This document shows positions 1,519-63,769 of a stretch of DNA of 64,000 nt, piece after piece. Under the pieces are notes generated by a model. That model made no database searches. It was given only the letters and a program-made list of their open reading frames with translations, and had not been told where the DNA came from. How positions within the stretch are numbered: position 1 is the first letter of the stretch; each line of letters starts with the position of its first letter. Source of the stretch: Firmicutes bacterium CAG:646 (GTDB lineage Bacteria > Bacillota > Clostridia > Lachnospirales > Lachnospiraceae); NCBI GenBank assembly GCA_000432335.1, contig HF995366.1, positions 10,792 through 74,791 on the forward strand, written 5' to 3'. The position numbers and the translations under genes are program-made.

Positions 1519-3546
1519 TTATTTCTTCTTTTTCAGCACAACAGTTCCCAATCTGTCAATCGTTCCGTCATACGTTCCCAGCCACACCGGATATTCCTCT
1601 ACCGGAAGTTTGATTTCTACCGGCTGCCGGTTAAAGTTCTGCACAAATACATATTCTGCATCCTGATTTTCTCTGGTGGTCACTTCTACACCATTAGGAA
1701 TATGACTGATCGTCCGTTTCACTCCGGCTTCCCCTGCAATTTTACGGTATACTTCATCATAAAATCCCTGTTCAAAATCAGCGCACACATAATAAGCCTT
1801 TCCTGCTCCATAGGTATTTACGGTAAATGCCGGCATGCCTGCATAAAAATCACTGCCATAAGTCATAAGCACTTCTGCAGCGGATGGCTGCACCAGATCG
1901 CAGAGATTGGTACAGGTATATGTTTTAGTAAGATGAAGCGCATTTCCATTCACCGGGCAGCCCGTATTGCTTTCCCCGTCATAGAGCCCGTCAATTTCCG
2001 TACTGCGAAGCCCCATCACATCCATCAGACCATAAGGCGTTCCCCCCAGGAAACAAAGATCCGTATCATCCACAATTCCTGACCAATATGTAAGAATAAA
2101 TCTTCCGCCCTTTTCCACATAGCGGCGAACTTTCTCTTCAAATCCCTCTCGGAACATGTATAACATAGGGGCCGCCACCACCTGATAACCATCCAGCTCC
2201 TGCTCCATATCGATCAGATCTACATTCAAGCCTAATTTTCGGAACGCATAATACGATTTTTCTACTGTTTCTTTATAGAACAATCCTTGATTTCTCGGTC
2301 CCTGAGCGTCTTCCATCGCCCAACGGCTCTCCCAGTCAAAAAGCACTGCCACCTTGGCATTAACGCCGGCTCCGGCGACTTCCGAAAGTTTCTCCAGAGA
2401 ATCTCCCACCTGACTGACTTCACGAAATACTCTGGTATCGTCGCCGCCGTAATGGTCGATCACTGCTCCATGGAATTTTTCTGAAGAACCCTGACTCTGG
2501 CGCAGCTGAAAATACTGAACGCTGTCTGAGCCATGAGCAATCGCCTGCATAGAGGCCGCATGAAGCATTCCCGGCTTTTTCAATTTACTCACCGGCTGCC
2601 AGTTGGTCGCTGACGGACAGCTCTCCATCAGAAGAAACGGTTTCTTCTGGATGCTCCGCATAATATCATGCTGCATTCCATCATCCATAGCTGTAAGATA
2701 TTCCTGTTTCTTATGCCACTGAGGGTAATTATCCCAGGAAACGATATCTATAATATCAGCAAATTTGTGATAGTTCAATCCCCGGAAGTCATACATCATA
2801 TTGATTGTTGTCGGTTTGTCAGAACCGCCATCACGAATTGCCTGAACTTCATGTTTTACAAAATCCACGGTTCTGTCTGTAACGAAACGTTTCCAATCCA
2901 GATTCAGTCCGTGCAGAGAATTTTCTCCCCGGGAAGACGGACTTTCTACCTGCTCAAAACTATGATATGTGTGACTCCAGAAGGTTGTTGCCCATGCCCG
3001 GTTGAGATTTTCAACGGTCTGATATTTCTCCTTCAGCCATTTTCCGAATTCCGCCTGACACAGCGGACAGTGACATTCTCCTCCATACTCATTGGAAATA
3101 TGCCATGCGATCACTCCTGGATGATTTCCAAAACGCTTTGCCAACTCCATATTGATAATTCTCGTCTTTTCCCGATATACCGGAGAAGTATAACAATGGT
3201 TGTGGCGGGCTCCAAACAGATTTCTGTGGCGCCCCTCGTCCACCCGCAAAACCTCCGGATATTTGTCTGCCATCCATTTTGGTCTTGCGCCGCTGGGTGT
3301 TGCCAGCATCACGGAAATACCATTCTCATACAGACGGTCAATGATTCTTTCCATCCACTCAAAATTAAAAACTCCCTCTTCTGGTTCCAGCGTAGACCAG
3401 GAGAAAATTCCCAGAGATACCTCGTTGATCTTTGCCTTTTTAAAATATTCAATATCTTTTTCCAAAATCTCCGGCATATGAAGCCACTGCTCGGGATTAT
3501 AATCTCCCCCGTGGATCAGCTTGCCGAAATTTACATTTTCACCCAT
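1519..3546 (-). CDS. GH42 family beta-galactosidase
   Basis: Track ORF 1519..3603. The internal start MGENVNFGKLIHGGDYNPEQW is preceded by AAGGAGG. The sequence resembles GH42 beta-galactosidases, including a zinc-binding Cys cluster CHCPLC. Confidence 0.88.
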   Translation of the reverse strand: MGENVNFGKLIHGGDYNPEQWLHMPEILEKDIEYFKKAKINEVSLGIFSWSTLEPEEGVFNFEWMERIIDRLYENGISVMLATPSGARPKWMADKYPEVLRVDEGRHRNLFGARHNHCYTSPVYREKTRIINMELAKRFGNHPGVIAWHISNEYGGECHCPLCQAEFGKWLKEKYQTVENLNRAWATTFWSHTYHSFEQVESPSSRGENSLHGLNLDWKRFVTDRTVDFVKHEVQAIRDGGSDKPTTINMMYDFRGLNYHKFADIIDIVSWDNYPQWHKKQEYLTAMDDGMQHDIMRSIQKKPFLLMESCPSATNWQPVSKLKKPGMLHAASMQAIAHGSDSVQYFQLRQSQGSSEKFHGAVIDHYGGDDTRVFREVSQVGDSLEKLSEVAGAGVNAKVAVLFDWESRWAMEDAQGPRNQGLFYKETVEKSYYAFRKLGLNVDLIDMEQELDGYQVVAAPMLYMFREGFEEKVRRYVEKGGRFILTYWSGIVDDTDLCFLGGTPYGLMDVMGLRSTEIDGLYDGESNTGCPVNGNALHLTKTYTCTNLCDLVQPSAAEVLMTYGSDFYAGMPAFTVNTYGAGKAYYVCADFEQGFYDEVYRKIAGEAGVKRTISHIPNGVEVTTRENQDAEYVFVQNFNRQPVEIKLPVEEYPVWLGTYDGTIDRLGTVVLKKKK

Positions 3547-3724: not shown

Positions 3725-6700
3725 TTAAATGCCTTTAAAAGAGAACGTAAATGTCATCTTTTCTTCTGTATTCAGCAGGTATTCCGGGTGAGTTTTTGCT
3801 CCCCAGCTGTCGTCTCCGGCGATTCCCATCTGTTGTTTAGACACCCGGACTACCGTGTAATGCACTTGCGGCAGTTCGTAAGGATGCATTGCATTTTCCA
3901 GCTCATGCGGGGTATAAGGCAGAGCTGAAAATTCCATCCGATCTCCGGTAAACAGCATTCCTCTTCCTTTTCTGTCTGTAACTGTCGCCCATCGAACCCC
4001 CACTTTATTGCCACATTCCTGCGGAACCAGATATTTTGCCATATTGTCTTCTACTTTATTTTTGTAGATCCCCAGTTTTGCTCCCTTACATCTGTCCACA
4101 TAAGTCTCTTCCGGTCCCATACCATACCAGGTCACATGGTCGTAATCCGCATCGAATTTGAACATCACGCCAAATTCCGGCATATCTCCCAGTTCTTTTA
4201 CCGGTTCATAAGAGAGGGTAGTCTGAATCGTTCCATCCCCATAAACCTTATAAGTCAGTTCACACTGACTGGCAGGTGTCGTAGGCATCACATAAGTAAA
4301 TGTGATCTCCGCACAATCCTCGTGTACCTGGATCTTCGGTTCATGTCCTGCCGGATACGGTCCGTCTGTAGGATATTTATGAGACAGGTACATAGATGCC
4401 ACTTTCCACTGAGCATAGCGCATCTGCATCAGATTTCCACAATCATTGTCATTCGGTGCCCGCCAGAAGTTTGGCTTCGGAATCATCTGAATCATTTCCA
4501 CCCCGCCATATCGGTAAGACACAAGACCTCCGTTCAGATAAGAGAACATCACGTCAAAGTTCTCTCCCTTCACGCCAAAATCGTGTCCTGAGCGGATCAC
4601 CTGGAATTGTTCCGGTTTCACCGACACTGCCGGGGCTTCCACCTGATAAACGCCCTGGCCGAAAGCTACCTCATGTCCTCTCTCTGCCCATACCGTATCC
4701 TCTTTCAGACGGAAGGAAACAGTTACCGCATACTCTCCCGGCAAAGTCTGTACCGGAATCGGAAGTTCATAAACCTCCTGAGACAGTGGCGCCACGGAAG
4801 TTTCCATAGAAACCTTTTTCACCTGTTTTCCATTTTTCTCCAAAATCACTACACAATCATAGATATCTGTATTCACAAACAGATTTTTATTTACTACTGT
4901 TACTTTATCCTTTTCCACATTGGCCGTAATATTCTGATAATTAAATTTTACTTCCTGCATTTTCGGAGATGCGTCCCGCTCACCACCATAAGCGATACCA
5001 TTTCCGCTGAAATTATAATCGCAGGGACGATCATTAAAGTCGCCGCCGTAAGCCTGAAACTCTTTTCCATAACGGTCTTTTTTGTATATGGACTGATCGA
5101 TATAATCCCAGATAAATCCTCCCTGATACAAAGGCTCCGTATCGGTAAGATCGGTGTATTTGTGCATAGCGCCGCAGGAATTTCCCATGGCATGGGTATA
5201 TTCACAGCAGATAAACGGTTTACTTCTGTCCTTTTCCAGAAATTCCTGAATCTGTTCTACAGAAGGATACATCTGACTTTCCATATCGCTGGTATCATTA
5301 TAACGGCGGTCATGGACAATTCCCTCGTAATGCACCAGACGGGTAGGATCCAGTTTCCGGTAAAGCTGAGACATTTCATAAATATCCTTACCCCCAAAAG
5401 ATTCATTTCCACAAGACCAGATTAAAATTGCCGGATGGTTTTTATCTCTTTGATACATGGAATTTACACGATCCAGCATCATATCCAGCCACTCCGGGCG
5501 ATCACACGGCACAACGCCGGAAAAATCTCCCGTCTGTTCCGCAGACAAATCCCAACTGCCGTGAGATTCCAGATTACACTCTGCGATCATATAAATACCA
5601 TACTCGTCACACAATTCATAAATGCCTACCGCATCTGGATAATGGCAGGTACGGATCGCATTAATATTATTCCGTTTCATGGTAACCAGATCCTTAATAA
5701 GCTCTTCTCTGGACACATGACGTCCGCTGACAGAGCTGAACTCATGACGGTTTACCCCCTTAAAGACAATACGTTTTCCATTCAATGTCATGATATGATC
5801 CTTCATTTCAAACCGGCGGAAGCCTACTCTCTGAGGAATCACCTCTGTTACATTTCCCGCATCATCCATCACTTCCAGAAGAAGATCATACAAAACCGGT
5901 GTTTCTGCGCTCCACAATTCCGGCTGCTCCACCTTCATCACATAATGACTGTTTTCCTGCAAAGTTTCCTCTACCGTCTGAATTATTTTCTCATTCTTTG
6001 ACAAAGTAATTCGGATTTTTCCTGCCTTCGTAGCTTTTACTGAAAGATCCAGATCTGCTTTCGTAAAGGTATCATCCAGCAGCGTTTGCACTTTCAGGTC
6101 AGATACGTGTACTTCCGGGATTGCATACAGATATACATCACGATACAAACCGGAAAATCTGAAAAAGTCCTGATCCTCACACCAACTGCTGCTTGTCCAT
6201 TTGAACACCTGCGCCGCCAGTTTATTCTCTCCCTCACAAAGATACTGTGTCAATTCAAATTCCGAGGGGGTAAAGGTGTCTTCACTGTAACCCACAAACT
6301 GTCCGTTCATCCACAGAGCAATTCCACTCTCCGCTCCCTGAAAAGAAACAAAGATACGTTTTCCTTTCATCACTTCCGGAACCTCAAAATATTTCACATA
6401 ACTTGCCACCGGATTAAACTGTACAGGAATCTCTCCCGGCTGCAGTTCTTCTCTTCCCTCCCAGGGATACTGTACATTGGCATACTGAGGAGCATCATAA
6501 CCTTCCATCTGAATATGCGCCGGAACACGAATATCATCCCAGGACTTACAGCAGTACTCTTCTTTCTCAAATCCCGGAATCGTACAATTATAGTTTTTTG
6601 CATAGTGGAATTTCCACAGACCATTCAGACTGAAGCGATACTCTTCCACATCCTGTTCCATCTTCTCCACACTGACAAAATACCGATGATCCGAGTGCGC

Positions 6701-22668: not shown

Positions 22669-23805
22669 TTACAGCATACTGGTTACAAGATTGATAACCA
22701 TTCCACCGGCGATTACAGAAGCAATCTGTCCGGACACATTTGCGCCTGCTGCGTGCATAAGAATGATATTGGTAGGATCTTCCTGCATAGCAATCTTCTG
22801 AACCACACGGGAAGACATCGGGAATGCGGAGATTCCTGCGCCACCAATCATCGGGTTAATCTTCTTCTTCAGGAAAAGATTAATAAACTTCGCAAACAAA
22901 ACGCCGCCGATCGTATCCATTACGAACGCAAACAAACCTATCGCCATGATCATAATTGTCTGAACTGTTACAAAGTTCTCTGCCTGCATACTGAAAGAAA
23001 TTGTGATACCCAGAAGCAGCGTGATCAGATTTGCCAGATTATTCTGTGCAGTATCAGACATTGTTCCCAAAACACCACATTCACGGATCAGATTACCAAA
23101 CATCAGGAAACCAACCAGCGCTACGGACTGAGGCGCGATCATACCAACTACTAACGTAACTACGATAGGAAATGCAATACGCATTTTACGGCTTACACTC
23201 TTTGGATTATACTCCATATGGATGCAGCGCTCTTTCTTTGTAGTAACCAGCTTGATCGCTGCTGGCTGAATAATCGGAACCAACGCCATGTAAGAATAAG
23301 CAGCAACCGCGATAGCGCCAATATATTTAGAGTTCAGAATCTGAGATACCAAAATAGAGGTAGGACCATCTGCAGCGCCAATGATACCGATAGAAGCGGC
23401 ATCTTTCATATCAAATCCTAAAAATGCTGCCAGCAGGATTGCTGCAAAGATACCAAACTGAGCTCCCGCTCCAAATAAGAACATGACGGGATTAGACAAA
23501 AGCGGTCCAAAATCAATCATTGCTCCGATACCGATAAACAGCAGAATCGGCATCGCCTCGGATGCATTGATACCCACATCAAATAACCAGGAAATAATAC
23601 CATGTGATTCGATACCTCCCTGTAATACCTGATCCAAAACACCAGACATGGGAAGGTTTACCAGAATTGCTCCAAATCCCATGGGAAGCAGCAGAGACGG
23701 CTCGTACTCTTTGCGGATTGCCAGCCAGATCAGCAAAATTCCCACGGCATACATGACAACCTGCTTCCAGGTCAGGCTCATAATGCCCTCAATTAAAAAC
23801 TCCAT
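22669..23805 (-). CDS. oadB: Na+-translocating decarboxylase beta subunit (OadB/GcdB/MmdB family)
   Basis: 378 aa, about 10 TM helices, with blocks typical of OadB (GAILVNLPMSG, GIIGAADGPTS, FGNLIRECGV, GGAGISAFPMS). RBS GAAGGAG. Confidence 0.85.
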   Translation of the reverse strand: MEFLIEGIMSLTWKQVVMYAVGILLIWLAIRKEYEPSLLLPMGFGAILVNLPMSGVLDQVLQGGIESHGIISWLFDVGINASEAMPILLFIGIGAMIDFGPLLSNPVMFLFGAGAQFGIFAAILLAAFLGFDMKDAASIGIIGAADGPTSILVSQILNSKYIGAIAVAAYSYMALVPIIQPAAIKLVTTKKERCIHMEYNPKSVSRKMRIAFPIVVTLVVGMIAPQSVALVGFLMFGNLIRECGVLGTMSDTAQNNLANLITLLLGITISFSMQAENFVTVQTIMIMAIGLFAFVMDTIGGVLFAKFINLFLKKKINPMIGGAGISAFPMSSRVVQKIAMQEDPTNIILMHAAGANVSGQIASVIAGGMVINLVTSML

Positions 23806-23883
23806 ACATATAACTCCTTCTATTTTATTTTGAAAAGATACCGCTGCCGAAAGCCCCTTCCTCAAGTGCCAAAAAACACCTCT

Positions 23884-23934
23884 GCAAAGAAAAAAGACTC
23901 TTACTGCAGCATCTGAAACTGCAATAAAAGTCTC
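23884..23934 (-). terminator. Strong intrinsic terminator inside the oadB 5' leader
   Basis: Minus strand GAGACUUUUAUUGCAG-uuucagaug-CUGCAGUAAGAGUCUU followed by UUUUCUUUG. 16-bp stem including 3 G-U pairs. Confidence 0.7.
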
Positions 23935-24027
23935 GCTATTTCAATCCTCCGCGGGCTGCATATAGATACAACCGATATGACGCAGAAAATCCACCGCAGT
24001 GGCAGCTACTCCCTTTCATCTGGACTA

Positions 24028-24056
24028 ATTATAAACAATCTATAAACTGTTGTCAA
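24028..24056 (-). promoter_or_regulatory. Consensus sigma-A promoter driving the oadB leader
   Basis: Minus strand TTGACA - 17 nt - TATAAT, exact consensus hexamers. Confidence 0.7.
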
Positions 24057-24084: not shown

Positions 24085-25263
24085 TTAGCTGCCATATTTT
24101 TTTAATTCTTCCAGCCTGCGAAAAAACATTTCTTTCCATTCTCTTCGATTTTCAAAAATCTCCTCATCAATCTCCTGGATCTGATGAAGACCAATCTCTT
24201 TCACCGCTTCGATTGCCGCTTCTCTCTGTGTCTTCTTTTCCGGATATATCGGCTGGCAATTCGCTCCGTCTATCGTGTCATAACTTCCAAAACTTTGATT
24301 AAAGTCCATAATCGGATACAAAGATACGTATTCGTTCGTCCGATTATCTACCAAAAATCCCCAGTTCTCCGGATGGCGATCTATATTACCAACCAAATAA
24401 TCCAGTATATTCATACCATAATAGGTTTCTTTGTCTATTCTTATACACTCTTTTAATACATCCAAATCATGATTTTCCGCATATATTTCAAATGCCATCT
24501 TAGATACAATGGAATACTTCGGAGATGTAATAAGCCTACTCTTCGTCACCTTTTGTCCAGCGTAAGAGCCTTCTTCATATCTCACTTGTTTAAAGTCAAA
24601 ACACTGACATAAACTGCTTGCCAATAATTCTTTTTGAACAACCTCCTCACCACCATCTTTTAACAAAATAGAATCTTTTCCTCTCCTGATCCACGCTTTC
24701 GGAAAACACCCCCTCGTGGACAAATCTGGCGCCAGTTCCTGATTTGTAACTGTCATCGGTTTTCCTCGCAAAGAAAGCTTCACAACTGCCTCATTTAAAG
24801 AATTATCATATAAATTTATCTTTTCATATGAAATTGGTTCATTACTCTTTCTGACCCAATATACATCTGTCAAGGACACACAATGGTAAGACAAGGAGAT
24901 TTTTGCACGATCCCGATCTGTCATCGCCTGCGCCATTCCGATACTGTTCAAAATTTCTTTCGCATATTTTCTATCCAGAGACAATACCCGCGAAGCGCAC
25001 CAATGATAAAAATTCTCCATATTATTAAGCAACATATCAAAATCATCAGTCTCTTCCAAATAAAGATCATAGGGCATAAACTTTTCATCATAAACACTAA
25101 CTCGTCCTCGAGTATTAATCTCTGCCACTTTTCGTTCTCCATGCATGATATCATAACTTGTAATGTTATTTTTTTGTCTTTTTCTCTGGGTATTCTTATT
25201 TAATTCTATAATTCCCTGTCCCAACAAACTATTTTCCAAACAATCACCCCTTCTATTATTCAC
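24085..25263 (-). CDS. HipA-like kinase domain protein (putative toxin)
   Basis: 392 aa. The motif LVGNIDRHPENWGFLVD resembles the HipA catalytic loop (D-x-H-x-K-N) with E in place of K. An XRE gene lies directly upstream. Confidence 0.45.
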   Translation of the reverse strand: MNNRRGDCLENSLLGQGIIELNKNTQRKRQKNNITSYDIMHGERKVAEINTRGRVSVYDEKFMPYDLYLEETDDFDMLLNNMENFYHWCASRVLSLDRKYAKEILNSIGMAQAMTDRDRAKISLSYHCVSLTDVYWVRKSNEPISYEKINLYDNSLNEAVVKLSLRGKPMTVTNQELAPDLSTRGCFPKAWIRRGKDSILLKDGGEEVVQKELLASSLCQCFDFKQVRYEEGSYAGQKVTKSRLITSPKYSIVSKMAFEIYAENHDLDVLKECIRIDKETYYGMNILDYLVGNIDRHPENWGFLVDNRTNEYVSLYPIMDFNQSFGSYDTIDGANCQPIYPEKKTQREAAIEAVKEIGLHQIQEIDEEIFENRREWKEMFFRRLEELKKYGS

Positions 25264-25349
25264 TATACAAAATATATTCCGCTTATCCTTCTGTATTATA
25301 TTTTATCAAAAACACTTCATTTTTTAAGCCCTTAAAGACCTTTTTAAAT

Positions 25350-25631
25350 TTATTTTTCCTTCGCCACCAACTCAACCTGCCATGTCCTCCCTAATGCTGC
25401 TGCGATCCGCACCATCATTTCCAGAGATGGATTGTAATTGCCGCTTTCAAATCTTGTAATATTGCTTCTTGGAACTCCTGCCCTCTTCGCAAGTTCTTCC
25501 TGGGTAATTCCCTGTGTTTTCCGACAGCACACATACTGTTCAACAACAGATTGTCTCGCACTTTTCTGTTCTACCTCTATTAAAATCTTTTGTTCACCTG
25601 ATGTATAAATATAATCCATACTATTTCTCAT
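25350..25631 (-). CDS. XRE family HTH transcriptional regulator (HipB-like position)
   Basis: QGITQEELAKRAGVPRSNITRFESGNYNPSLEMMVRIAAALG. Confidence 0.75.
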   Translation of the reverse strand: MRNSMDYIYTSGEQKILIEVEQKSARQSVVEQYVCCRKTQGITQEELAKRAGVPRSNITRFESGNYNPSLEMMVRIAAALGRTWQVELVAKEK

Positions 25632-37076: not shown

Positions 37077-37157
37077 CATCCCTCCGGGTGAAACAGGAGC
37101 TGACACGCAACGCGCAGCCTTATGAAATATATAAGAAATATCTCATATCTCCTATCT

Positions 37158-37290
37158 CTTCTTCTCTCATCCAGACTATACTGTCGGTACCGGAATCTCA
37201 CCGGTTCAGCCATGCTGCCATGGGTCGCGGACTTTACCGCCGGTGGGGAATTACGCCCCGCCCCGAAGAATTTTCTTTTCTTCCCCTATC
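37158..37290 (-). promoter_or_regulatory. FMN riboswitch (RFN element)
   Basis: Minus strand CTTCGGGGCGGGGCGTAATTCCCCACCGGCGGTAAAGTCCGCGACCC...GGTGAGATTCCGGTACCGACAGTATAGTCTGGATGAGAGAAGA matches the conserved RFN blocks of B. subtilis ribD. Preceded by TTGAAC-17-TATGAT. Confidence 0.85.
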
Positions 37291-42500: not shown

Positions 42501-42530
42501 TTGCCACATTTCCCCGGAATATGCTATACT
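42501..42530 (+). promoter_or_regulatory. Promoter for the DUF4190 gene with a long (about 230 nt) structured leader
   Basis: TTGCCA - 18 nt - TATACT. Confidence 0.5.
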
Positions 42531-42762
42531 ATGTCATAATTAAGTTGATACCTTTATGACCCGTCCCAATATGCGAATAAAAGTGGGGCGCATGCCCCAC
42601 GATATTCGAATTTGGGGCAGAATTGTGGAAGTGCGAAGCACGAAACAATTCGTCAGGCATCTTTTGATTTTAATATCATTAAAATGCAACGATCGAAAAG
42701 TCATAAACCACTTAGTGCCTGCACTTATGTGGTGTTATGTCTGGATCAGAATGGAGGAAATT

Positions 42763-63510: not shown

Positions 63511-63758
63511 AAACAAAACAGAGGTGCGCCGCCAACGGAAGCCCACCTCTAAAGAATCCATACAGTAATAAAACAACTTCACCTGTTTTCTTCGGATAGC
63601 ACTCCATCTTGCGATGACAGTCATGAGGTTCTTCACCCCCATGCCCAGGGACAAGATCTCAGGTCTCCTGTTCCTTCGGCACCCTCTCCTTTCCCTTTCC
63701 TTCTCCTGTTCCTGATACATCTGAAAAGGTACTGATAGAACGTGCAACCTCTATCTCT
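63511..63758 (-). promoter_or_regulatory. Lysine riboswitch (L-box) with terminator, controlling dapA-dapB
   Basis: Minus strand AGAGGTTGCACG...GGTGCCGAAGG...GGAGAC...TGACTGTCATCG...TGGAGTGCTATCCGAAG, then AGAGGTG...CACCTCT GTTTTGTTTTT. Matches L-box hallmarks (AGAGGTGC, GCCGAAG, GCTGTCA, TGGAGGGCTATC in B. subtilis lysC). Confidence 0.8.
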
Positions 63759-63769
63759 GTGTTTTATTT

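Follow-up and report, generated by a model that had tools for sequence, protein, structure and literature searches.

A probable Mn2+-responsive yybP-ykoY-class riboswitch of the three-way-junction type upstream of a solitary oadB-like gene in Firmicutes bacterium CAG:646

The published anatomy of the yybP-ykoY riboswitches comprises a right leg made up of L1, P1.1, P1.2 and P2 and a left leg made up of L3, P3.1, P3.2 and P4, with P1.1 serving as the switch helix. An invariable adenosine of L3 contacts Mn2+ through its N7 (A41 in L. lactis, A48 in X. oryzae, A50 in S. pneumoniae), the published L3 sequences being ACA48UACU for X. oryzae and UCA41AUUC for L. lactis. The 5′ side of L1 is, in the solved Mn2+ riboswitches, a sarcin-ricin-like loop that extrudes an A-minor adenosine (PMC6754395, PMC6649816) into a receptor pair of P3.1. 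In the S. pneumoniae mgtA riboswitch, which forms a three-way junction, P4 is replaced by an invariant UNAAA, where N is U or G (Martin et al. 2019, PMC6649816). The same study describes a conserved 5′ L1, an invariable AGA after a variable nucleotide in 3′ L1, the invariant C49/A50 dinucleotide in L3 and a C46-G83 receptor pair. Here we analyse the leader of a solitary oadB-like gene on the minus strand of a 64,000-nt stretch of Firmicutes bacterium CAG:646 (contig HF995366.1, positions 10,792 to 74,791; hereafter the window). Judged by its likeness to the characterised relatives, this leader is very likely a yybP-ykoY-class Mn2+-responsive riboswitch of the subclass in which P4 has given way to UNAAA, acting as a transcriptional ON switch for the gene.

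A first-pass annotation, made from the letters of the window, had proposed a transcription-termination riboswitch or attenuator at this place, which it could assign to no class recognisable by eye. The interpretation as a termination riboswitch was right. The class, however, is not an unrecognised one, as the leader contains the yybP-ykoY hallmark GGGAGUAGC...AGCGAGAC, a class absent from that by-eye list. It was the regulon of downstream genes together with GGGAGUAGC...AGCRAGAC that led to the yybP-ykoY Mn2+ riboswitch. Apart from P4, the published anatomy corresponds element by element to the helices of the leader, and every feature that PMC6649816 lists for the mgtA three-way junction is present, including a following terminator with a U-rich tail. 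The comparisons below use alignment A1, made with MAFFT from 40 instances, and covariance model R1, which was built from A1 and hence from oadB leaders only. Counts out of 170 refer to the aligned instances of alignments A2 and A3 against R1, among the matches listed (at least 170). The features of the locus are as follows.

24028-24056, minus strand: sigma-70-type promoter, with -35 TTGACA at 24056-24051, a 17-nt spacer and -10 TATAAT at 24033-24028, matching the consensus at 12/12 positions.
24013-24019, minus strand: P1.1 switch helix, 5′ strand AUGAAAG, pairing with 23930-23924; 5/7 pairs show compensatory changes.
24007-24012, minus strand: L1 loop, 5′ side GGAGUA, found in 170/170 instances.
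24003-24006, minus strand: P1.2, 5′ strand GCUG, pairing with 23938-23935; 96% of cells paired.
23991-24002, minus strand: P2 hairpin CCAC-UGCG-GUGG, covarying, of variable length among relatives.
23981-23990, minus strand: P3.1, 5′ strand AUUUUCUGCG; 97.5% of cells paired, 9/10 pairs covary.
23974-23980, minus strand: L3 bulge UCAUAUC, with C23979 and A23978 as the counterparts of the invariable metal-contacting C-A.
23954-23973, minus strand: P3.2 hairpin GGUUGUAU-CUAU-AUGCAGCC, seen in the covariation alignment and the minimum-free-energy (MFE) structure; distal part variable.
23944-23953, minus strand: P3.1, 3′ strand CGCGGAGGAU, from the covariation alignment.
23939-23943, minus strand: UGAAA joiner in place of helix P4, the UNAAA signature of the three-way-junction subclass.
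23935-23938, minus strand: P1.2, 3′ strand UAGC, from the covariation alignment.
23931-23934, minus strand: L1 loop, 3′ side GAGA (NAGA in 170/170 instances), also the first bases of the terminator 5′ arm.
23924-23930, minus strand: P1.1 switch helix, 3′ strand CUUUUAU, inside the terminator 5′ arm (23934-23918).
23884-23934, minus strand: intrinsic terminator, with a 17-pair stem at 23934-23894, a 7-nt loop and a U-tract at 23893-23884.
23806-23883, minus strand: rest of the 5′ untranslated region, with the ribosome-binding site AAGGAG at 23819-23814; poorly conserved except near that site.
22669-23805, minus strand: oadB-like gene, encoding 378 amino acids, sodium ion-translocating decarboxylase beta subunit family.

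The structure is conserved and covaries. A protein-guided scan, with one genome per species, yielded 78 oadB loci, the closest being those of 'Eubacterium sp. UBA3279' (98% amino-acid identity) and Oliverpabstia (97%). Conservation of the leader's first ~100 nt was seen by blastn and direct reading in Oliverpabstia, Fusicatenibacter, Blautia, Acetatifactor and others, with a diverged form present in Oscillospiraceae-type genomes and in a Treponema. Invariant throughout A1 are GGGAGUA, AGAC, the C-A dinucleotide in the bulge and one C-G pair; the P3.1 receptor pair C23982-G23952, just above L3 (alignment columns 97/176), is C-G in 40/40 seed sequences. RNAalifold, run without an input structure, returned the same five helices, with compensatory changes in 25 of 30 pairs. 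With the explicit structure model 94.0% of cells are paired, against 37-46% when the partners are slid by 1-3 columns, and the covariation score is 0.62, against 0.10-0.16 in the slid controls and a value reached by 0/500 shuffles. The switch helix itself covaries (for example AUAAAAG/CUUUUAU versus AUAUAGG/CCUGUAU), as does P1.2 (GCU/AGC, GUC/GAC, GCC/GGC, ACC/GGU), and P2 reaches about 60 nt in Blautia loci. The C-A dinucleotide occupies positions 2-3 of L3 in 170/170 instances, and L3 is 7 nt long in 146/170. For the leader RNA 24021-23922 alone (100 nt), the single-sequence MFE structure is the comparative three-way junction, at -31.3 kcal/mol. Conservation and covariation of the leader upstream of orthologs had been set beforehand as the test on which the first-pass proposal should stand or fall, and the proposal came through it: full-length R1 matches lie upstream of oadB in 44 of the 78 species-level loci, and both sides change in 23 of 29 pairs.

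Two side observations concern the copies themselves. A degenerate copy in a Fusicatenibacter metagenome-assembled genome (L004:2665-2764, 49.7 bits; the region runs on to about 2960) carries ~130 nt inserted between the 3′ part of the aptamer (AAAACAGCGGGG) and a second ACAGCGAGAC-plus-terminator unit, which looks like an expression platform that has undergone an insertion or been partly duplicated. At the variable position of 3′ L1, the instances listed mostly have A before oadB (32/51) and G before other gene classes.

The subclass assignment turns on what stands in the place of P4. Because 43 oadB leaders were found via the protein, independently of any RNA pattern, they give unbiased counts of the joiner: UGAAA in 33, UUAAA in 6, UAAAA in 2 and GUAAC in 2, with UNAAA counted in 39/43. 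A P4 helix is absent from all 43, and in the window only UGAAA lies between P3.1 and P1.2. The leader has the L1 of the class (GGAGUA/GAGA), the ~7-nt L3 with C-A, the C-G pair of P3.1 (the A-minor contact itself being predicted) and the 3′ strand of P1.1 within the terminator. It also retains P2, which makes three hairpin arms with a predicted coaxial stacking. The absence of a canonical four-way junction with P4 stacked on P3 excludes the four-way form, not the yybP-ykoY class. We had first considered the P4-less form to be undescribed, since only alx, which lacks P2, had come up; this was rejected on the evidence of Martin et al. (2019). The E. coli alx riboswitch likewise has a yybP-ykoY core with one junction helix missing, but there a capping loop L2 takes the place of P2 and P4 is kept, and it is translational, pH-coupled and found in Enterobacterales, whereas our leader has P2, no P4 and a transcriptional platform.

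The closest described system is the S. pneumoniae mgtA riboswitch, with which our leader shares the order P1.1, L1, P1.2, P2, P3.1, L3, P3.2, UNAAA, P1.2′, L1′, P1.1′ and a terminator overlapping P1.1′, the invariant GGAGUA, NAGA, L3 C-A and C-G receptor pair, and a predicted ON logic. The two differ in the gene (a PII-type ATPase there, a solitary OAD_beta here), in the host (Streptococcus there, gut Lachnospiraceae here) and in L3, which is of the UCAAUA type there and UCAUAUC here. With the canonical four-way riboswitches (L. lactis yoaB, X. oryzae as well as E. coli mntP; Rfam RF00080) the leader shares the L1/L3 metal core, the A-minor receptor pair and the competition between P1.1 and the terminator, and its relatives stand, like them, before genes for MntP, P-type ATPase and further cation exporters; TerC and UPF0016 genes are also associated with the class. 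It differs from them in having no P4, and thus a three-way junction, and in its lack of an RF00080 score. The RF00080 consensus as printed on E. coli mntP (UGGGGAGUAGCc-[P2]-GcuUgCGUCA-ACAUACU-[P3.2]-UGGCGcAagC-[P4]) holds the same conserved blocks as the leader, and R1, trained on oadB leaders only, detects the E. coli mntP riboswitch (16.9 bits, E-value 5e-4), aligning P1.1/L1/P1.2 as GGGAGUAGCC...GGCGAGAC.

The family extends well beyond oadB. A sequence pattern composed of the conserved blocks recovered 22 of 46 known instances with no false match in 560 kb; by design it finds only P4-less forms, so that the metagenome census is silent on the ratio of three-way to four-way junctions, and a fully general family pattern was set aside as it would give thousands of chance matches. 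In metagenomes the pattern identified at least 120 stretches, and all of the 120 listed were confirmed by R1 at 39-74 bits. PMC6649816 reported the three-way junction as conserved among Streptococcus, whereas our instances come from Lachnospiraceae, Oscillospiraceae, Treponema and numerous metagenomic lineages, at 24-64% GC. From 126 further instances, among the matches listed, 115 downstream open reading frames (ORFs) were obtained, clustered and named by Pfam, with the following outcome.

Mntp (manganese efflux pump): 48/115 ORFs listed.
P-type ATPase (Cation_ATPase_N + E1-E2_ATPase): 31/115 ORFs listed.
Na_Ca_ex: 17/115 ORFs listed.
OAD_beta: 8/115 ORFs listed.
GDT1/UPF0016, Na_Pi_cotrans and a few others: 1 each of 115 ORFs listed.

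The association with Mn2+ and other cation exporters thus belongs to the riboswitch family, while the gene behind the window copy, OAD_beta, does not count among the recognised members of the yybP-ykoY regulon. The placement is recurrent: oadB stands under the three-way-junction riboswitch in the 44 of 78 species-level loci and in at least 8 metagenomic cases. Two more R1 matches, in L043 and L045, lie on the opposite strand, where the riboswitch controls a type-II P-type cation ATPase ~1.6 kb from oadB instead of oadB itself. Among the instances listed, MntP and CaCA (Na_Ca_ex) leaders carry L3 of the kind ACAUACU/ACAUACC/ACAUUCU, and OAD_beta and P-type ATPase leaders carry UCAGUAC/UCAGAAC/UCAAUAC, a grouping that is confounded with taxonomy. 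By this grouping oadB would belong with the ATPase-type (mgtA/yoaB-like) pocket, and the variation in L3 and 3′ L1 could be a tuning of metal affinity or simply phylogeny.

Several instances of the family have unusual settings. The contig L181 has two three-way-junction copies 2 kb apart on opposite strands (3341-3499, plus; 5585-5692, minus), one of them with a 56-nt insertion in P3.2 and the minus-strand copy preceding a Na_Ca_ex gene, and L203 has a like arrangement. The pattern scan of IMG/VR gave 6 stretches, 5 of them confirmed by R1, and these five copies on viral-classed contigs (L080, L082 and L084, also L081/L083) stand before the genes of a DUF6064/metallo-beta-lactamase protein, of an MntP-like protein and of a P-type ATPase; they are likely bacterial flanks or misclassified contigs and not phage-borne riboswitches. 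A NiCo riboswitch (L069:91-188, plus, 58.7 bits) lies 1.4 kb upstream of a Mn2+-riboswitch-oadB unit, placing two metal riboswitches in one neighbourhood, and in L015 a ZTP riboswitch (L015:6333-6475, plus) lies downstream.

The expression platform follows the logic known from the relatives. In L. lactis the terminator stem includes the 3′ segment of P1.1, and by stabilising P1.1 Mn2+ brings about read-through; the same P1.1-based logic has been demonstrated for X. oryzae and for the three-way-junction mgtA riboswitch. In our leader the first 11 nt of the terminator 5′ arm are supplied by 3′ L1 (23934-23931) and the P1.1 3′ strand (23930-23924), and since the P1.1 strand lies inside that arm, aptamer and terminator are mutually exclusive. 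The terminator state is calculated at -47.8 kcal/mol, against -30.2 for the aptamer state, or -39.4 with a residual hairpin; because the terminator state is far more stable once its 3′ arm has been transcribed, termination would be the default. Transcription is predicted to start near 24021, 2 nt ahead of P1.1, and the aptamer would fold into two legs, the right one consisting of P1.1, L1, P1.2 and P2 and the left one of P3.1, L3 and P3.2. A divalent metal bound between L1 and L3, touching the invariant A23978, would dock the two legs and stabilise the distal P1.1; a stable P1.1 would block the terminator, and RNA polymerase would read through into oadB (ON). When no metal is bound, the more stable terminator would form and transcription would halt near 23884. 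The ligand, presumably Mn2+ but with binding of Ca2+ as well, and the direction of switching (ON) are inferred from the characterised relatives.

Several points weigh against this assignment, the first of which come from Rfam. RF00080 gave no match on the leader even at an E-value of 10 or below (401-nt and 116-nt queries), its gathering threshold of 45 bits being reached neither by the leader nor, at gathering level, by 20 ortholog loci, so that class membership would rest on our own alignment and the feature-by-feature comparison. To RF02617 (SSRC10) the leader (23889-24003, minus) aligned over the full length with 14.2 bits and an E-value of 3.7, short of the gathering threshold of 56 bits. 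The L3 of the window, UCAUAUC, is identical to no characterised L3, and the regulated gene encodes a Na+-pump subunit and not a known Mn2+ exporter. As to the ligand, the S. pneumoniae mgtA three-way junction binds Ca2+ 50-fold more tightly than Mn2+ (dissociation constants of 1.7 and 54 uM; PMC6649816), and Sherlock and Breaker have cautioned that other divalent ions may be the ligands of some yybP variants.

The silence of RF00080 has to be read against a positive control. The E. coli mntP leader (L205:2462-2558) itself scored 41.6 bits (E-value 7e-10), under the 45-bit gathering score, and the Rfam 15 model requires P4, ends at P4 and leaves P1 unpaired; RF00080 is insensitive even to canonical members. 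The cmscan run against Rfam that had been proposed as a check was a misleading negative, its sole trace being the SSRC10 match; other Rfam 15 matches on the leader were at chance level, both at gathering level (whole window, 20 ortholog loci) and at E-values up to 10 (401 nt, 116 nt). SSRC10, which Rfam names 'Streptococcus sRNA 10' and types as Gene; sRNA, has the consensus GGGAGuagCAG...CGUCAaUA...CUgAAACAGCgaGaCc followed by a terminator, which is the motif of the P4-less Mn2+ riboswitch, and three relatives (L139:1228-1352, L160:3218-3342 and L184:1573-1682) reach 41-42 bits on this narrow, streptococcal model. SSRC10, likely to be what Rfam has for the mgtA riboswitch of S. pneumoniae, is probably the transcript that arises when the streptococcal three-way-junction riboswitch terminates prematurely; it is not linked to RF00080 and would probably need to be reclassified.

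The two points on the ligand lead to the alternative that survives best, namely that the aptamer family is the same and the signal another, the oadB/ATPase-type pocket (L3 of the UCAGUAC/UCAAUAC kind) answering chiefly to Ca2+ or some other divalent cation in vivo. Besides the tighter binding of Ca2+ and the suggested change of specificity in some variants, the split of L3 by gene class (OAD_beta with P-type ATPase, MntP with CaCA) speaks for it, as does the finding that the associated P-type ATPases score best on Ca2+-ATPase models. That split is, however, the one confounded with taxonomy, and the same streptococcal RNA is activated far better by Mn2+, read-through being half-maximal at 0.23 mM Mn2+ versus 1.1 mM Ca2+, with mgtA induced by Mn stress in vivo (PMC6649816). 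The adenosine that donates N7 for Mn2+ selectivity is invariant in 170/170 instances, and the validated Mn2+ switch of L. lactis has a similar L3, UCAAUUC. We regard a signal other than Mn2+ as unlikely, and the Mn2+-responsive switch as the better account of the locus.

A new Na+- or Li+-sensing class matched to a Na+-pumping OadB was an attractive idea, and the first-pass annotation had pointed to the nhaA-I/DUF1646 elements. Na+-I riboswitches do occasionally precede oxaloacetate decarboxylase genes; the one upstream of pycB/oadB in Acetivibrio cellulolyticus (PMC9337991) is likewise an ion-responsive ON riboswitch with a terminator before an oxaloacetate-decarboxylase beta-type gene. Our OadB retains Na+-site residues, and some members of the riboswitch family lie upstream of Na_Ca_ex and Na_Pi_cotrans genes. 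The Acetivibrio aptamer, however, is unrelated, a smaller two-hairpin RNA with other conserved nucleotides and a monovalent ligand. Na+-I (DUF1646) was rejected for our leader because its blocks CGGUUG, UUCAAGA and GGGGUGGGA are all absent and no Rfam match was obtained at E-values up to 10. The validated Na+-I constructs that we compared, two-hairpin RNAs of 55-66 nt, read UUCGGUUGAGC...UUCAAGAG...CUGGGGUGGGAA and have no similarity to the leader, which shares neither block (UUCGGUUGAGC..UUCAAGAG..GGGGUGGGAA) nor architecture with them. Na+-II / Li+-I (nhaA-I) and Li+-II (nhaA-II) were ruled out by the lack of an Rfam match at the same cut-off and by their description (proteobacterial, associated with nhaA; other taxa and genes), Na+-II being a rare nhaA-I variant of Proteobacteria. 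The pocket nucleotides are exactly those of the yybP-ykoY divalent-metal site, and the commonest regulated gene among the matches listed is the Mn2+ exporter MntP. A Na+- or Li+-sensing class is therefore largely refuted and very improbable.

The unit from promoter to terminator might also be primarily an independent small RNA gene of ~135 nt, SSRC10-like, that acts in trans while oadB has a transcript of its own. The streptococcal homolog RF02617 is listed by Rfam as an sRNA gene, the terminated transcript would be an abundant, stable and structured RNA, and a weak promoter-like site (9/12) lies at 23850-23822, between the terminator and oadB. Such sites, however, occur in the window at chance level (11 found versus 8.1 expected), and the element is always found immediately before a cation-transport gene in the same orientation, as in 43/43 of the oadB cases found via the protein and, in four transporter families, in 104/115 of the other ORFs listed. 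The overlap of P1.1 with the terminator covaries, as expected for the logic of an expression platform, and the streptococcal homolog was shown to be a cis-acting riboswitch. There is thus very little probability that the unit is a trans-acting RNA. The least probable reading is a protein-mediated or leader-peptide attenuator that does not sense metal directly. An architecture of promoter, long leader and terminator is common to such systems, and a bglG-type model gave a weak match to the terminator hairpin only (15.6 bits, E-value 3.5). However, no leader ORF is conserved, the sole small ORF (MYGVFN*) overlaps the oadB start, the bglG-type match covers just the terminator and the conserved nucleotides are the metal-coordinating ones of the family crystal structures.

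The first-pass description was confirmed, each of its features being found on the minus strand where it had been placed. The TTGACA-17-TATAAT promoter is the sole perfect match within the 64-kb window, where 0.05 would be expected by chance (5/100 shuffles contain one), and six orthologous loci (L001, L003, L005, L007, L010 and L012) have a TTGACA...TATAAT/TATACT promoter at an equal distance upstream of the aptamer. The long leader with a strong terminator likewise stands, with ~216 nt from the predicted start to the oadB ATG at 23805. Its folding is far better than that of shuffled sequences (z = -5.3). The terminator stem, which is followed by UUUUUUCUUU, is present in the MFE structure of the full leader, and a terminator lies downstream of the aptamer in every ortholog inspected. 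The ribosome-binding site sits 8 nt ahead of the oadB start. The 6-codon ORF MYGVFN* (23789-23809, minus) begins with the first ATG, at 23809, 4 nt ahead of the oadB start and in another frame, and, though it recurs in L001 and L002 (ACATGTATG), is probably incidental. At other places in the window an FMN riboswitch (37155-37274, minus, 115.9 bits), a lysine riboswitch (63589-63761, minus, 109.2 bits) and a Clostridiales-1 RNA (42519-42662, plus, 68.4 bits) were found at Rfam gathering level.

The oadB product is a clear member of its family (Pfam OAD_beta, 3.9e-149; NCBIfam Na_pump_decarbB, TIGR01109, 408.7 bits against a cut-off of 190.6; 5.9e-94 against the solved Salmonella OadB structure 6IVA). 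In the alignment to Salmonella OadB it keeps Glu40, Asp203, Tyr229, Asn311, Asn373, Gly377, Ser382, Arg389, Asn412 and Ser419, among them residues with demonstrated Na+ binding (D203, S382 and N412 being Na+-site residues). Arg304 of Salmonella OadB, reported to be essential, is Thr in the window protein and Thr or Ser in nearly all 78 orthologs; as this holds clade-wide, with or without a riboswitch, the change was ruled out as a mark of riboswitch-controlled copies. That oadB is an orphan was confirmed by its neighbours, which are a HipA-like kinase (weak HipA/PI3-kinase-like), a helix-turn-helix protein, an FtsX-type permease, an ABC (ATP-binding cassette) transporter and an aminotransferase, by a terminator-like site at 22421-22403 downstream of the gene, and by the orthologous loci, where 333 flanking ORFs fell into 203 clusters with no conserved decarboxylase partner (alpha, gamma or biotin-carrier subunit) for riboswitch-controlled oadB. 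The genes directly upstream of the riboswitch promoter (24085-25631, minus) encode a protein of 392 aa that weakly matches HipA_C/PI3_PI4_kinase and an HTH_3 protein of 93 aa, possibly a HipBA-like toxin-antitoxin pair. In five riboswitch-less loci (L020-L024) oadB is divergent from a type-II P-type cation ATPase, and ~170-300 nt upstream of oadB (at 3001) these loci share a conserved intergenic inverted repeat (TGCACGATAA...TTATCGTGCA), perhaps a protein operator.

Within the literature covered, we found no paper that joins yybP-ykoY with oadB or related terms; the founding papers (Dambach 2015, Price 2015), with a possible OAD_beta listing in a gene-context figure, were outside this scope. 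The Breaker-lab 50-genome discovery paper has no oadB-associated motif, and in Weinberg 2017 Mn2+ riboswitches come up solely where the terC motif is discussed. The riboswitch in the window is of an already known kind, and what is new, and modestly interesting, is the conserved control of a solitary oadB. A three-way junction described as a Streptococcus feature upstream of mgtA is here the standard form in gut Clostridia, before MntP, P-type ATPase, CaCA and OAD_beta genes. It is widespread (at least 170 instances) and yet invisible to RF00080, its only Rfam counterpart being filed as the streptococcal 'sRNA' SSRC10. Because of this blind spot, annotation leaves such leaders blank and they look like novel riboswitches; a rebuilt Rfam model would recover them.

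Our results place the solitary OadB robustly in what is presumably a divalent-metal (Mn2+/Ca2+)-responsive regulon, which suggests an unrecognised role for orphan OadB paralogs. The metal-ON riboswitch in 44/78 loci, the pocket type held in common with P-type ATPase exporters, the adjacency to such ATPases in several genomes and the lack of a conserved decarboxylase partner together lead us to the tentative idea that the solitary OadB of Lachnospiraceae and Oscillospiraceae could be more than a spare decarboxylase subunit and be dedicated to the relief of Mn2+/Ca2+ stress. It could do so either as a so far unrecognised elevator-type Mn2+/Ca2+ exporter, coupled to Na+ or H+, or as a Na+ extrusion module that powers the CaCA antiporters of the regulon. 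The link between the riboswitch and oadB provides a testable handle on the function of the orphan OadB paralogs.

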